Source of the DNA: an uncultured archaeon | GTDB lineage: Archaea; Asgardarchaeota; Thorarchaeia; Thorarchaeales; Thorarchaeaceae | Direction: 5' to 3' | Assembly (NCBI GenBank): GCA_964458565.1 | Contig: CAYWJO010000001.1 | Location: 160,001-224,000, forward strand | DNA length: 64,000 bases | Shown: positions 24,756 to 30,168 of the stretch, piece by piece | How positions within the stretch are numbered: the first letter of the stretch is position 1 | Layout: each line of letters starts with the position of its first letter | The notes under the pieces: generated by a model | What the model was told of the DNA's origin: nothing | The model's database searches: none | What the model saw: the letters and a program-made list of their open reading frames with translations, nothing else | Made by a program: the position numbers and the translations under genes

Positions 24756-25379
24756 ATGATAAAGAATTGGTAGAGACTTGGTGCCTGGTGTGGTATTGTG
24801 GCAGGAATCCAGTTTGTAATAATTACATTCACTATAATGATTCCATACCCTGAGGGATACTCTTTCCTTGAGAACAGCTTTAGTTCGTTAGGATTATCGG
24901 TGACTCGAGGCTATCCAACACCTTGGAATTGGTTTCTTTTTGCAACAGCCACAACACTAGCTGGAGTCCTATCAATACCATTCTGGCTTTCGATACGTAC
25001 TCTATTCACAGAAACATCAGTGGAAAAGATACTAAGTGGATTAGGTACTGTGTTGGGGATTATTGCAGGGCCTTGCCTTGCAGGAGTAGGTATTTTTGCA
25101 GGAGATCTATACGGAACAGAACATGGTTGGTCAACAATCTTGTTTTTCTTGTTATTTTCTTCAGCTATTATCATATACTCTATTGCGATTCTTATTAACA
25201 AAGACTACGAATGGGTCTATGCTCTCATTGGCATAATTGTTGCAATCATTTGTTATACCTATATCTTAGCCCCGGGTTTTGGAAATGCAGCAATGCAGAA
25301 GCTGGCGGTTTACTCATTGATACTGTACTCAGTATTCCAAGGGTATAAGCTACTGAAGGTTTTCAATGGAAATGTGTAA
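24756..25379 (+). CDS. DUF998-like membrane protein with an in-frame TAG at codon 6 (readthrough, pseudogene, or downstream GTG start at 24798)
   Basis: AGGTGA RBS, ATG at 24756, MIKNW-TAG-RLGAWCGIV continues in frame; YP.GYSF..N..S.LG motif. Confidence 0.6.
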
Positions 25380-25429
25380 ATGATTTCAAATTGAATACAA
25401 TCATGTAATACTCTTGATGAATGAAATGC

Positions 25430-26371
25430 TTACATGATTTGATCTATGAACCACTCCTCCATTGAAAGGTGCGTCTGAGTATCTAGAATATTCTCATCCT
25501 CGTAGAGTGATCGAACAAAATGGTTGTATGAATCTACATTCGGTGCCCGAACTGTGGTAAATAGACTGAAATCTTCACTTGTTCTGCTTAGATCCCATAC
25601 CTCATTCATTTCAGCAATTCTGTGAGCTGTTTCAGCAACTGTTCCAGGTTTTACTCTAATCTGTAGAAAGAATTTGAGCGGCAGCCCGATAAGTGTATAA
25701 TCAATAGCTGCAGAATACCCAGCAATAACACCACGAATCTCTAATCGCTGCATAGCCTTCGAAACAGCCGATTGGGATACACGCGATTTCATTTCATTCC
25801 CGATTTCCTCTTGTGATAGCGGAAGAGGATGGTCAACGCTTGGATGTTGCTTTGAGATAACAGATAGTAGCTCTAAATCTCTTTTTGATAGAGGTTTATC
25901 GTCGGTTTCAGTCTTCTTCATTTTGATACTGTGCGATTTGTAGGTTGTAAGAACTTGAGCCATCTTGTACTTACCTTCACTTGTTTTTGCAATCACATTA
26001 TCTATCGTATCAAGAAAATCTTCAAATCCGACTGAAGGTAGGTTTCTGAAATGAGCCAACAGTGAATAATCACCTGTAATACCATCAAGAGATTCTAATC
26101 CAGGCATCTGAAGAAGATCCAGACTTACTTCATGCTCTCTCGGATTCGACTTGATAAAAAGGAGCGTGCTGCGTTCAGAAGAGACCTTTGCAGGATCGAC
26201 TACAGTAATGTAAGATCGAATGACTCCATACTTTGCAAATCCACGAATAGTTTTTGATACCCAGTTTCGGCTTTTACCGACTAATGAACTGTAGACTGAA
26301 ACGGGTTGTCGAGAGTTTCTTATGATTGATTTGAGTAAGGACTGTTCAGGCTCTGTAATAGATTGCATCAT
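25430..26371 (-). CDS. Lrp/AsnC-family regulator with two tandem HTH-RAM units
   Basis: Two HTH segments ending GVI.SY / GVIAGY, each followed by an AsnC-type ligand-binding domain. Confidence 0.8.
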   Translation of the reverse strand: MMQSITEPEQSLLKSIIRNSRQPVSVYSSLVGKSRNWVSKTIRGFAKYGVIRSYITVVDPAKVSSERSTLLFIKSNPREHEVSLDLLQMPGLESLDGITGDYSLLAHFRNLPSVGFEDFLDTIDNVIAKTSEGKYKMAQVLTTYKSHSIKMKKTETDDKPLSKRDLELLSVISKQHPSVDHPLPLSQEEIGNEMKSRVSQSAVSKAMQRLEIRGVIAGYSAAIDYTLIGLPLKFFLQIRVKPGTVAETAHRIAEMNEVWDLSRTSEDFSLFTTVRAPNVDSYNHFVRSLYEDENILDTQTHLSMEEWFIDQIM

Positions 26372-26457
26372 TTTTTGTTACATCTTATGCATTTTATGAA
26401 TTATGAGAATGAAGGATTCATATACTTATGCATCGGACCTCAGAGCGGGAAAAAATA

Positions 26458-27748
26458 ATGGCAGACTACAAGGTGAAAGATATTGGTCTTGCTGCAGAAG
26501 GCAGGATGTTGATTGAGTATGCGGAGAAGCACATGCCTGTGCTTATGCATCTTCGAAAGAAGTATGCTGAAACAAAGCCACTCAAAGGAATGAAGATTGC
26601 AGGTTGTCTACACGTCACCAAAGAGACCGCAGTTCTGATAGAAACACTTCGTGCGGTTGGTGCGGAGGTAGCATGGTCAGGATGTAATCCATTATCAACA
26701 AATGATAAAGTGGCGGCAGGTCTCGCAGCTAATGATGTTCCAGTATATGCATGGCATAACCTAAGCACCGAGGAATACTATTGGTGTATTGAACAGACTC
26801 TCAAGACTGAACCGACACTCACACTTGATGACGGTGCAGATCTCATTTTCACACTTCATAACAAGCATCAGGAATTGATACCGAATCTCTATGGGGGTTC
26901 TGAGGAAACAACAACTGGAGTCATTCGAGTTCGTGCAATGGCTGAAGATGGTGCTCTCAAGTACCCAATCATGGCTGTTAATGATGCTGATACTAAGCAT
27001 ATGTTCGATAATGTATATGGTACAGGTCAGAGCGTATTTGATGGTGTCATGCGAGCCTCTGCGATTCTCATTGCTGGGAAGACGGTGGTAATTGGTGGAT
27101 ACGGCTACTGCGGTAGGGGTATGGCTGAACGAGCACGAGGTCTTGGGGCTAATGTTATTGTCACAGAAGTGAACCCAATTCGCGGACTTCAGGCCAGAAT
27201 GGACGGTTTTCGAGTAATGCCGATGGGCGAAGCAGCTCCTGAAGGGGATTTGTTCCTTACAGCTACAGGGATGAAAGATGTAATCACCGCTGAGCATTTC
27301 AAGGTCATGAAGGATGGTGCGATGTTTGGTAATGCAGGTCACTATAACGTTGAAATCAACGAACCGGATCTCATCTCTCTCAGCAAGGGACCAAAGAGAA
27401 GGGTTCGACATGCACTTGATGAATACGAGATGATGGATGGGCGAATACTCTATCTACTAGGTGAGGGAAGACTTGTGAATCTCACAGCTGCGGAAGGTCA
27501 CCCGAGTGAGAAGTTAGCATTCGTTGCTGCTTCCTAGAAAGGTGATGGACCTCAGCTTCACAGGCCAGCTCAACGCAATGCTCTGGATGACTAAGAATGG
27601 AAAGGACTTGAAACCAGCTGTCTATGAATTCCCCAAAGAACTCGATCAACAAACTGCTTTAGCAAAATTGGAAACTATGGGCTTAAAGATAGACAAGTGG
27701 ACACCCGAGCAGGAAGCATATGCAAGAGCTTATGCTGAAGGCACATAG
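26458..27748 (+). CDS. ahcY: Adenosylhomocysteinase (SAH hydrolase), join(26458..27508,27540..27748), 419 aa after removal of a 31-nt intron
   Basis: CLHVT, SGCNPLST, DDGAD, EETTTG, FDNVYGTGQS, GYGYCGRG, GRLVNL..AEGHP motifs; the C-terminus (SEVMDLSF...) is in another frame and is restored by removing the insert. Confidence 0.95.
27509..27539 (+). other. Putative bulge-helix-bulge (splicing-endonuclease type) mRNA intron
   Basis: UCACC/GGUGA outer stem, CGAG/CUAG 4-bp helix (one G-A mismatch), UGA and AAA 3-nt bulges, GAAG..UAGCA/UGCUG.CUUC inner hairpin; canonical cuts give CAC CCG AGT GAG GTG ATG. Confidence 0.85.
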
Positions 27749-27759
27749 CTGTTTGTCTA

Positions 27760-27790
27760 AAGGGGCTACAAACCCCTTCCCTCTTTTTTT
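27760..27790 (+). terminator. Hairpin plus T-run after ahcY
   Basis: AAGGGG...CCCCTT followed by T7. Confidence 0.55.
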
Positions 27791-27884
27791 GGCTTAATTC
27801 ATTCATTCCAATGCGTTTACGTACTAGTTTAACCAAATATGGTGCACCGGACAACTCAGTTACAATCAAGGTGAATTATCAACA

Positions 27885-28097
27885 GTGGGACCAGATATGA
27901 TGATTCCTTACTAGGGGATGACTGTGTCCTAGCGATTTTCCTTTTCTGTGGTACCTATTCCCTACCAAGACAGAGGACTGGAGTTTCAGTTCCTCTATTG
28001 TTACTCCGTGAGAAGGTTCCCCGACTTTCTCGTTACCTACCTCAAGGAAGGATGGTCATGACCTTGAACCAGCCTCTCGCCATCTAGTTTAGATGGC
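27885..28097. ncRNA. Candidate structured non-coding RNA of unknown class
   Basis: Several consecutive hairpins in a region with no credible ORF. Confidence 0.35.
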
Positions 28098-28322
28098 AGC
28101 CTGACAATTCTGACACTTTGTGATTCCCTGCTCGTTTTTTGAGCCGCAATAGGGGCAGATTACAAGCACAACCTTTTCGACTGTACGCTGTTCTGTCACA
28201 ATCTTTGGCTTTATCACAGAGTCTTGACTCCGTCTACGGCGGAGATAGAGCATTACAATGATTACTAAAACCAACCCAAAAATGAGTGGCAACATCCAAT
28301 TCGGTATCGCAGCTGTTTGCAT
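28089..28322 (-). CDS. Small single-TM protein with C-terminal double zinc ribbon
   Basis: TM helix plus RRRR; CPYCG...CQNC. Confidence 0.75.
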   Translation of the reverse strand: MQTAAIPNWMLPLIFGLVLVIIVMLYLRRRRSQDSVIKPKIVTEQRTVEKVVLVICPYCGSKNEQGITKCQNCQAAI

Positions 28323-28440
28323 CGTTTGTCGTCCTCTATTTGTGTAGTAGTATCAGTACATGTTGATTTGGAATTCACCAATCAAGAGTAAATGATTCAC
28401 TTCATTATGAAACCAGTAGATAGCCAATAATCAATCTATT

Positions 28441-28518
28441 GAAACCATGGGAATCAAGATTGACAAGTGGACTCCTGAACAGGAAGCATACGCTAGAGCA
28501 TATGCAGAAGGTACATAG
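28441..28518 (+). pseudogene. ahcY: Remnant duplicate of the ahcY 3' end (ETMGIKIDKWTPEQEAYARAYAEGT*)
   Basis: 65/78 nt and 24/25 aa identical to 27671-27748. Confidence 0.9.
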
Positions 28519-28562
28519 TCTTCACAGACATATGCACATCCACCTATATCCAAAGTGGTTCA

Positions 28563-29378
28563 TCACGAAGTCACACGCTCTGATACATCGACTCCATCAT
28601 GTTCAATCATTTGGAGAAGAAGTGGAATCAATGACTCATCTATAGCAATTAGATATGCCAGTTTCTTTTTAGTATAAGTTCTAGCGCCACTATTTAGTAG
28701 TTCCCAGAGCCGGCGATAGGAATACATAAGCTTACTATATTCATTCTGAAGTATGCTGAATCCATTCTTTTCTTTGAGTGAATCCGAAATAAATTGATCT
28801 AGGTAAGGTGTATCAACAGCCAGCCCTTTTGAGATAAACGTACCCATCTGAAGATCAAAAATGGTGGGTCTCATTCCACTAACATTATCAATCTCATCAT
28901 AACTGATTACAAAGAGGGAGGTTCTCTGTTTCGTGAAGAGCGCGTCAAGTTGGTTTTTTACAACGTTCGCAATTCGTGTGTTGTTATGAACCAGGTACAA
29001 GAAATTGCCCATGATAAGTTGAGCGATAATCTGAGCAAAGGAACTGATTGCAGCTGTTTGTTTCTCACCAAAAGCACTTATGATTTCACTGAGATTTGGA
29101 AGTTCCTCGTCCTCATCTTGAGTAATATGTTCGATGTTGATAGATGCACTTTCGGCAATTTGTAAATAAGTAGGATACTCTGTACCACGAATCTTATGTT
29201 TCACATCCAGATAGACGAGAATTGCATGAAACGGTTCGCCATGAACAGAGAGAACTGTGGCAATCCCTCCTTTCGTCTTGCCTACATCTATATCAGTAGC
29301 ATCTAGTGCGATGTTCTCCTGACAAATGTTGCAGAAAACATACACTTGCTTAGCTACATTTTCGGACATTACAGTCAC
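28563..29378 (-). CDS. Hypothetical protein with N-terminal Cys/His (CxxC...H...H) domain
   Basis: 271-aa ORF; CNIC...VHGEPFHAILVYLD...IRG. Confidence 0.6.
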   Translation of the reverse strand: MTVMSENVAKQVYVFCNICQENIALDATDIDVGKTKGGIATVLSVHGEPFHAILVYLDVKHKIRGTEYPTYLQIAESASINIEHITQDEDEELPNLSEIISAFGEKQTAAISSFAQIIAQLIMGNFLYLVHNNTRIANVVKNQLDALFTKQRTSLFVISYDEIDNVSGMRPTIFDLQMGTFISKGLAVDTPYLDQFISDSLKEKNGFSILQNEYSKLMYSYRRLWELLNSGARTYTKKKLAYLIAIDESLIPLLLQMIEHDGVDVSERVTS

Positions 29379-29463
29379 TAGAGTTATTTTCAGATATTAA
29401 ACAATGTTCATATATAGTCTGGTTAGATTTTGGGTCCTATTATCTCGATTAGAAACAAATGGA

Positions 29464-29991
29464 TTAGCTCAATTTCAATTTGAACGTCTTCTCAAACTTC
29501 TCGAGTTTTGGAGCAATCACATAACGACAGTAACCTTGATTGGGATTCCGTTTGAAGTAATCCTGGTGGTATTCTTCAGCTTCATAGAATTCAGAGAAAG
29601 GTTCTATCTTAGTCACGATGGGATCCTTCCAATTCTTACTCTTATCATATTCGCCCTTAATTCTCTCAGCCACCTCTTTCTGTTGTTCGGAATGATAGAA
29701 AATAATCGAACGATATTGAGTTCCAACATCATTGCCTTGACGATTCAGAGTAGTAGGATCATGAATTTCGAAGAATACTTCAAGTATCTCTTCATAAGAA
29801 ATTATTGAAGGATTAAACTCTAACTGAATAACTTCTGCATGACCAGTTTTACCGGTTAGGACTTGTTCATATGTAGGATTCTCTAAGTTTCCTCCAGAAT
29901 AGCCCGATTTGACGGAGATTACACCTTTCAATTGTTGATACACAGCTTCTGTACACCAGAAGCATCCTGATCCGAGAGTTGCTAATTCCAT
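29464..29991 (-). CDS. msrA: Peptide methionine sulfoxide reductase A
   Basis: [34 protein letters not shown]. Confidence 0.95.
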
Positions 29992-30168
29992 GTTTTACAC
30001 TCTATTCTAACATTAATCAACTATTAGAAAGCGGAATATATGAGAGAAAATCCACCTACCTCAAATGGAGCAGTACAAGAGCGGAATCAGCAAAATTATG
30101 GTGATTGCAAGATTTTATAACGAAATTATCCTGAATTTATAATAACTATAGTTAATTTTGACATTGGT

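Follow-up and report, generated by a model that had tools for sequence, protein, structure and literature searches.

Introns that the tRNA splicing machinery would remove from archaeal messenger RNA (mRNA) are known from cbf5, whose pre-mRNA carries a bulge-helix-bulge (BHB) intron in Desulfurococcales and Sulfolobales (Watanabe 2002; Yokobori 2009, PMC2738675). The cbf5 introns measure 16-44 bp, show patchy gain and loss, and have been proposed, without proof, to act as negative regulators (PMC2738675). Non-canonical or relaxed BHB motifs have been described for the tRNA introns of TACK and Asgard archaea (PMC5829648; bioRxiv 10.64898/2026.10.13.758758), and the Asgard splicing endonuclease EndA is an (alpha-beta)2-type enzyme, with an L1 loop that leads to broad substrate specificity (PMC5829648). 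Here we describe an interruption of this kind in a Thorarchaeota (Asgard) archaeon, within a window of 64,000 nucleotides from contig CAYWJO010000001.1. The single S-adenosylhomocysteine hydrolase gene of this genome (ahcY, + strand) is interrupted by a 31-nt tRNA-type (BHB) intron. Our favoured explanation, which we hold with moderate confidence, is an intron removed constitutively by EndA and RtcB, in which a fail-safe for translation may be built in.

By translation, ahcY exon 1 (26458-27508, + strand) runs from the initial methionine through GHPS to the first base of a Glu codon, and exon 2 (27540-27748, + strand) supplies the last two bases of this codon, followed by VMDL..AEGT and the stop. 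Exon 1 matches the Pfam families AdoHcyase (E 7e-61) and AdoHcyase_NAD (E 2e-50), while exon 2 matches positions 225-291 of the 299 in the AdoHcyase profile, i.e. the profile end. No second ahcY match was found in the genome, making the exon 1 locus the sole copy. The insert between the exons (27509-27539, + strand, 31 nt) shifts the frame by +1, and its excision gives GHPS-E-VMDLSF as in intron-less orthologs. The spliced junction, CCG AGU G/A GGU GAU GG (the slash marks the point of joining), is the same as in about 20 of these orthologs, and the predicted spliced RNA reads CCGAGUG/AGGUGAUGG across it. Cutting after nucleotide 2 of the bulge restores the exact frame for inserts of 20-22, 28, 31, 32, 33, 34 and 59 nt. 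A cut after nucleotide 2 of each bulge is also the rule that places tRNA introns between positions 37 and 38.

The predicted BHB draws on both exons and on the intron, all on the + strand. Its outer helix pairs GUCACC (27497-27502), from the His-Pro codons of exon 1, with GGUGAU (27541-27546) of exon 2 at pair probabilities of 0.75-1.0, and is built from His/Pro and Val/Met codons. The central 4-bp helix joins CGAG (27503-27506) to CUAG (27534-27537) through the pairs C-G, A-U and G-C and a single G.A mismatch, in second place, between G27504, the third position of the Pro codon CCG, and A27536. The 3' strand of this helix holds a TAG stop (27535-37) in frame with exon 1. Based on BHB geometry and on the match of the junction to orthologs, the 5' bulge UGA (27507-27509) is predicted to be cut after G27508; the predicted cut in the 3' bulge AAA (27538-27540) falls after A27539. 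Within the intron, a hairpin (27510-27533) pairs GAAG(U) at 27510-14 with (G)CUUC at 27529-33 in its inner helix, which continues as AGCA/UGCU around the loop UUCGU; the hairpin core, GCAUUCGUUGC, lies at 27517-27527. As a separate observation, the codons at the site (CAYCC / GGUNAUGG) already supply the outer helix.

Folding of the single sequence is not significant (z = -1.65), and its minimum free energy structure is without the central helix. We therefore judge the structure to be real from comparison, through the shared site and the compensatory pairs. The Thorarchaeota intron DNA set comprised 19 distinct sequences: a 31-nt type with nine members (one shortened to 28 nt), a 32-nt type also with nine (one having 33 nt), and a single 59-nt intron. 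In the 31-nt type (8 sequences), 91.7% of pair cells hold standard pairs, compared with at most 59% when the partners are slid, and there are 3 compensatory pairs. For the 32-nt type, 87.5% of cells are paired as against at most 44% with slid partners, with 5 compensatory pairs; taken over both types, the slid controls stay at or below 62%. The inner helix of the 31-nt type, which holds the 3 compensatory pairs, is paired in 100% of cells in 8 sequences, and the CUAG columns of the central helix 3' strand are invariant across the 8 aligned 31-nt introns. The hairpin core of this type recurs in the 32-nt type.

The genome encodes two EndA paralogs (PF01974) and RtcB (PF01139), and introns were predicted by ARAGORN in 22 of its 32 tRNA genes. 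Its cbf5 gene has no interruption. A genome-wide screen for BHB introns in mRNA gave 46,082 BHB-like sites, which reduced to 420 candidates that restore an open reading frame (ORF), mostly ordinary gene junctions. The hairpin core has 5 matches in the genome where 3.6 are expected, the others lying in coding sequence; the intron hairpin is not a repeated mobile element here. An Rfam search of 25000-30000 returned nothing relevant.

Among relatives the intron is scattered. The codon junction in ahcY is interrupted in 13 of the 86 genomes of the family, and the intron is absent from the remaining 73, sister species included. Interruptions of this junction were also seen in two other Asgard families, affecting 2 of the 3 genomes in the one containing Atabeyarchaeia (34 nt) and all 3 in f31 (20-22 nt). 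Further intron copies were found on metagenome contigs, and independent assemblies share the insert. On a maximum-likelihood tree of exon 1 proteins, intron presence and type are dispersed, with the 31-nt label requiring 8 changes for 8 rows, as do shuffled labels; a tree of 250 nt around the site showed the same scatter and did not group the intron types. Well-supported sisters differ from one another: intron-less and 31-nt states meet in L017/L019 and L007/L008, intron-less and 32-nt states in L005/L034, and 28-nt and 32-nt introns in L082/L088. In AhcY trees, the intron state (none, 31-nt or 32-nt type) switches between very close sequences with unchanged flanks. No clear tract of co-conversion was seen in the flanks, whose identity to those of this genome (G000) is 0.62-0.88, with intron identity of 0.77-1.00. 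The switches between close sequences suggest that the intron is often lost, gained or replaced, with precision, at this site.

Three further observations concern related loci. In L103 (genome G050, from the same family) the site holds an intron of 59 nt whose two hairpins, inside a 7-bp stem, look like a tandem duplication of a GCAUUCGYUGC module. The ahcY genes of the f31 genomes G389-G391 (L100, L101, L102) have two BHB mini-introns 15 nt apart, leaving a 15-nt micro-exon; the 30-nt intron splits AAA-E/GHP and the 20-22-nt intron lies at the GHPS-E/VMD site. An apparent 17-nt ahcY insert in the Desulfurococcales metagenome-assembled genome L077 (CAZCAU010000023.1) was rejected, as it is a run of 10 N flanked by duplicated CCAGCGA, a scaffolding artefact and no intron.

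In-frame read-through of the unspliced RNA (27508-27537, + strand) gives E-K-L-A-F-V-A-A-S-stop. The unspliced ORF ends ..GHPSEKLAFVAAS, with the tail EKLAFVAAS, and is missing the 68 residues VMDL..AEGT. An in-frame stop near the intron 3' end, whether TAG, TAA or TGA, is present in 19 of 19 Thorarchaeota DNA variants. The 33-nt variant, whose length would otherwise permit in-frame read-through, also has one, and in the 59-nt variant it is followed by another 24 nt of intron and lies well away from the central helix. All 19 variants carry the tail motif A-[F/I/L]-x-A-(A)-[S/A/L/F], with examples including EKLAFVAAS, ERQAFGAAS, EKYAFVAAF, VREAFAAS, VMTAFAAA, VRRAFAAL and VQERNLAFAAS; the endings are AAS, AAA, AAL, AAF or DAS, uncharged and Ala-rich. 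Motif and stop are likewise found in 17 of 17 truncated AhcY ORF clusters, among about 125 Thorarchaeota-like protein clusters. Five tail variants are known from protein sequence alone (VKLSTYYKKNGLSAFAAA, EKYDYAFVAAF, VKSAFVIAAA, EKFAIAAS and VKSAFVAAA), of which the first three are new length variants. In public records, truncated ORFs of 357-359 aa (proteins P0019, P0038, P0052 and others) are annotated plainly as 'adenosylhomocysteinase', and the intron has therefore gone unrecognised in the deposited entries.

The way in which this intron segment varies resembles that of coding sequence. Length changes before the stop are -3, -3, +3, +6, +9 and +30 nt, all multiples of three. For independent events, the chance of this outcome is about (1/3)^6. 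The intron continues for 2, 6, 7 or 24 nt beyond the stop. A crude Nei-Gojobori count inside the intron gave dN/dS-like ratios of 0.26 and 0.34 in the exon 1 frame, compared with 0.8-2.3 in the two alternative frames. Of the two hairpin copies in the 59-nt intron, the translated one has retained GCA UUC GCC GCC, and the untranslated second copy, ACAUUCGUUGU, has an otherwise invariant G-C pair changed to A-U. Ala is depleted at positions -1 and -2 of the 2128 long ORFs of the genome (3.9% and 3.5% versus 6.5%), a weak line of evidence, as a bias towards charged C-termini is general. From these alignments, the in-frame stop and Ala-rich tail are, in our reading, a conserved part of the Thorarchaeota version of the intron, kept in the exon 1 frame, and the stretch that ribosomes would read appears to behave like coding sequence.

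The initial annotation of this DNA had drawn attention to an imperfect BHB with the G27504-A27536 mismatch, an in-frame TAG inside the helix, the loss of about 68 residues and the tail, all of which we could confirm from the sequence. It had also suggested that modification of this BHB could tune splicing; a role of the mismatch as a conserved, modification-sensitive control point is not supported. Exon CCU AGU and a perfect CUAG/CUAG central helix are present in 8 of 9 distinct 28/31-nt introns, and the mismatch is restricted to this genome, whose Pro codon has changed synonymously at its third position (CCU>CCG). At alignment pair 9/41, 7 of 8 sequences have U-A, and this genome alone lacks a pair. 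The intron of G045 is identical at 31/31 positions, yet its exon has CCU and its helix is perfect. Since CCU is found in the other 8 of the 9 sequences, G045 with its identical intron included, the mismatch is not a conserved feature. Comparison with orthologs thus bears out the conservation of the in-helix stop and the tail, within Thorarchaeota, and not that of the mismatch.

The exon change is predicted to affect folding. When the exon carries CCU, the lowest-energy structure is the canonical BHB, at -18.2 kcal/mol, with a central pair probability of about 0.77. With the CCG of this genome, the BHB conformer reaches -13.6 kcal/mol versus -16.9 kcal/mol for a competitor, and the central pairs fall to about 0.01. 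Eight of the 9 sequences of the 32-nt type have a different G.A, at position 4 of the helix (CCAG/AUGG), and the enzyme evidently accepts such helices. The mismatch is predicted to weaken the BHB motif, and is probably tolerated by the broad-specificity enzyme. We interpret it as a lineage-private synonymous exon change, neutral or slightly deleterious, and not as a conserved sensor.

Eukaryotes provide a model for methylation-dependent intron retention in the METTL16/MAT2A system, which uses conserved hairpins, a fixed methylation motif and a spliceosomal intron. By analogy, it had been proposed that methylation potential feeds back on ahcY through regulated splicing: a modification dependent on S-adenosylmethionine (SAM), placed at or near the imperfect BHB, would tune EndA cleavage so that AhcY is made when S-adenosylhomocysteine (SAH) accumulates. 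The mismatch lowers the central-helix pair probability and weakens the predicted BHB, and splicing here could for that reason respond to small effects; a regulatory role has also been proposed for the cbf5 intron (PMC2738675). Set against this, a synonymous exon change has produced the mismatch in a single one of the 9 distinct sequences of its type, and the intron is missing from most of the family. A search for a C/D-box guide (at least 10 nt antisense to the BHB, beside a D/D' box and with a C box) found none, although shorter or mismatched guides are not excluded by it. Eight antisense 10-mers beside CUGA were seen, approximately the chance number, and none had a C box. As the intron is sporadic and sister species are intron-less, it cannot be a conserved feedback device: a methylation-potential sensor would be expected to persist in the lineages using it. 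We see no sign of SAM/SAH-controlled intron retention of the MAT2A type. The mechanism is not supported by the comparison and we consider it highly improbable.

Other explanations dispense with splicing altogether. If the insert were kept, translation could stop at the TAG and restart at the conserved ATG of VMD 7 nt downstream, so that AhcY would be assembled from two polypeptides. The conserved stop and the maintained frame of ORF 1 agree with such a split gene, as does an ATG always 7-11 nt after the stop. There is also an AGGUG just upstream of the restart ATG, but it abuts the ATG and therefore leaves no usable spacing. Further difficulties are the exact BHB geometry in five structurally different inserts, each rebuilding the Glu codon from G + AR, the 21-nt f31 variant that has no stop, the micro-exon of 15 nt between two f31 inserts, and the uninterrupted gene in sister species. 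We regard a split gene as very unlikely. Ribosomal bypass of the T4 gene 60 type was rejected, as there is no matching take-off/landing codon and the insert is almost over when the stop is reached. The genome was assembled from a metagenome (93% complete, 5% contamination), and an insert that breaks the frame might there suggest a decaying pseudogene or an assembly error, particularly as the unrelated hit L077 proved to be an N-run artefact. Independent assemblies and metagenomes nevertheless contain the same insert, neither exon shows loss of integrity or of conservation, and this is the sole ahcY copy, which leaves the probability of such an origin close to negligible.

Under the favoured explanation of a constitutively spliced EndA/RtcB intron, the pre-mRNA would fold into two 3-nt bulges with a 4-bp helix between them. 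The (alpha-beta)2 splicing endonuclease would cut after G27508 and A27539, and RtcB would join the exons and so rebuild the Glu codon of GHPS-E-VMD, most likely as a constitutive housekeeping reaction. RNA structure would account for part of the stop and tail, as the CUAG palindrome has to base-pair with exon CCU-AGU and the hairpin's GC pairs are formed by the Ala codons. Another part would probably reflect selection on the translation of not-yet-spliced mRNA. Without a nucleus, the ribosome would halt inside the intron and free a truncated AhcY with a small non-polar C-terminus. The tail may speed removal of this truncated protein, which seems to us a realistic possibility, if one that falls short of probable. 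We are more hesitant as to whether the unspliced product is deliberately terminated and tagged, which is the one element of the original proposal left standing. In its fullest form the idea becomes an intron-borne quality-control module, in which the in-phase frame and stop would end ribosomes on unspliced mRNA and the Ala-tail-like end would mark truncated, potentially tetramer-poisoning AhcY for rapid degradation; this we offer tentatively and think rather unlikely.

Several points weigh against this account. Splicing and its efficiency are deduced from sequence, and in the nearest-neighbour model the canonical BHB of this genome lies 3.3 kcal/mol above the alternative fold, so that efficient splicing here is an assumption. 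The tail motif coincides with the intron hairpin, where GCA and GCU form the two invariant G-C pairs and UUC falls in the UUYGN loop. The symmetry axis of the hairpin runs through a third codon position, which places the covarying pairs (21/33 and 24/30) on third positions and the invariant G-C pairs on first and second ones; counted over structural units instead of bases, a Fisher estimate for the third-position excess is only about 0.05, which is borderline. The stop of the 31-nt type is forced by its pairing with the exon. Atabeyarchaeia tails (VCFSSN, VCLSNN) are without the motif, as are the f31 introns, and the 21-nt f31 variant has no in-frame stop. Even in Thorarchaeota, several tail positions vary non-synonymously (K/R, L/Q/Y, V/A/G/D and S/A/L/F). 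Much of this would be expected if the intron is spliced and its stop and Ala-rich tail are pure by-products with no protein or translation function, RNA structure, including a UUCG-like loop, and the shared ancestry of the intron copies being sufficient. On that alternative, it is telling that the stop of the 31-nt type sits in the central helix, that the invariant bases are the two core G-C pairs together with U25, U26 and G28 of the UUYGN loop, that other Asgard lineages splice the same site without the motif, and that outer tail residues vary freely. It accounts poorly for the 32, 33 and 59-nt types, in which the stop lies outside the central helix and yet is always present, with three different stop codons in use. 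A low dN/dS-like ratio in the exon 1 frame alone and pre-stop length changes that are multiples of 3 in six of six cases are also difficult for it, as are the F>L and F>I replacements, which alter 'invariant' loop bases but keep a hydrophobic residue. We judge the by-product alternative unlikely, but to be taken seriously. The initial annotation's degron-like tail gains some support from the conservation of stop and motif throughout the Thorarchaeota introns, and the absence of the motif from the introns of Atabeyarchaeia and f31 counts against it. As the motif overlaps a GC-rich hairpin and is missing from those two groups, the tail is no more than a candidate degron.

Two features of the neighbourhood should be mentioned. 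A 313-aa regulator with a Crp-like helix-turn-helix and an Lrp/AsnC ligand-binding domain is encoded at 25430-26371 on the - strand, divergent from ahcY. An orphan second copy of the last 25 codons and stop of ahcY (28441-28518; compare 27671-27748) is found 690 bp downstream, with 13 nucleotide differences in 78 nt and one amino-acid change relative to the original. No LAGLIDADG gene or remnant was found downstream of ahcY (27749-29378); the tail copy may be a scar left by such a gene.

In the literature we searched, splicing of archaeal coding sequence by the tRNA endonuclease is documented for cbf5 alone, and ahcY would add a second gene family. The ahcY case comes from Asgard archaea, the closest prokaryotic relatives of eukaryotes, and concerns their sole ahcY gene. 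The main outcome here is a negative one, as the methyl-cycle feedback story rests on an unconserved base. How mRNA introns are tolerated under coupled transcription-translation is a long-standing question, which the coding-like intron stretch makes testable. If the quality-control module is true, it would represent the first intron-encoded degron in an archaeon and would show how a nucleus-less cell copes with introns in its mRNA.

Compared with known systems, ahcY resembles MAT2A in being a methyl-cycle gene that needs intron removal for a productive mRNA, which was the basis of the original analogy. It differs in that its mismatch is unconserved, most relatives do without the intron, and there is no reader or writer to point to. 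A second comparison is with non-polar C-terminal degrons, such as the ssrA tag (..ALAA) and the alanine tails added by RqcH/NEMF. In vitro, archaeal PAN-20S binds GFP-ssrA, unfolds it and degrades it (PMC4608255). This processing makes a non-polar tail a plausible handle, which for the ahcY tail is suggested by resemblance alone. We know of no archaeal protease that reads an Ala-rich, intron-encoded tail of this kind. Like the ssrA and RqcH tails, the ahcY tail is a short, Ala-rich, uncharged C-terminus (AAS, AAA, AAL) on an incomplete protein; unlike them, it is encoded in cis by the intron instead of being added by tmRNA or RqcH, and its last residue is mostly Ser.

The closest parallel is the cbf5 intron, which is also a short, patchily distributed EndA-type intron in coding sequence at a catalytically important site, in hosts with a heterotetrameric broad-specificity EndA. 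The ahcY intron belongs to another gene and another phylum, and its exon 1-frame part is conserved as a short tail and stop, a feature for which we found no report in cbf5. With the relaxed tRNA introns of TACK and Asgard archaea it shares the same motif and enzymes, the tolerance of imperfect helices, and frequent, apparently repeated gains. The difference is that the host RNA of the ahcY intron is a messenger RNA, which opens the intron to translation by ribosomes ahead of its excision.

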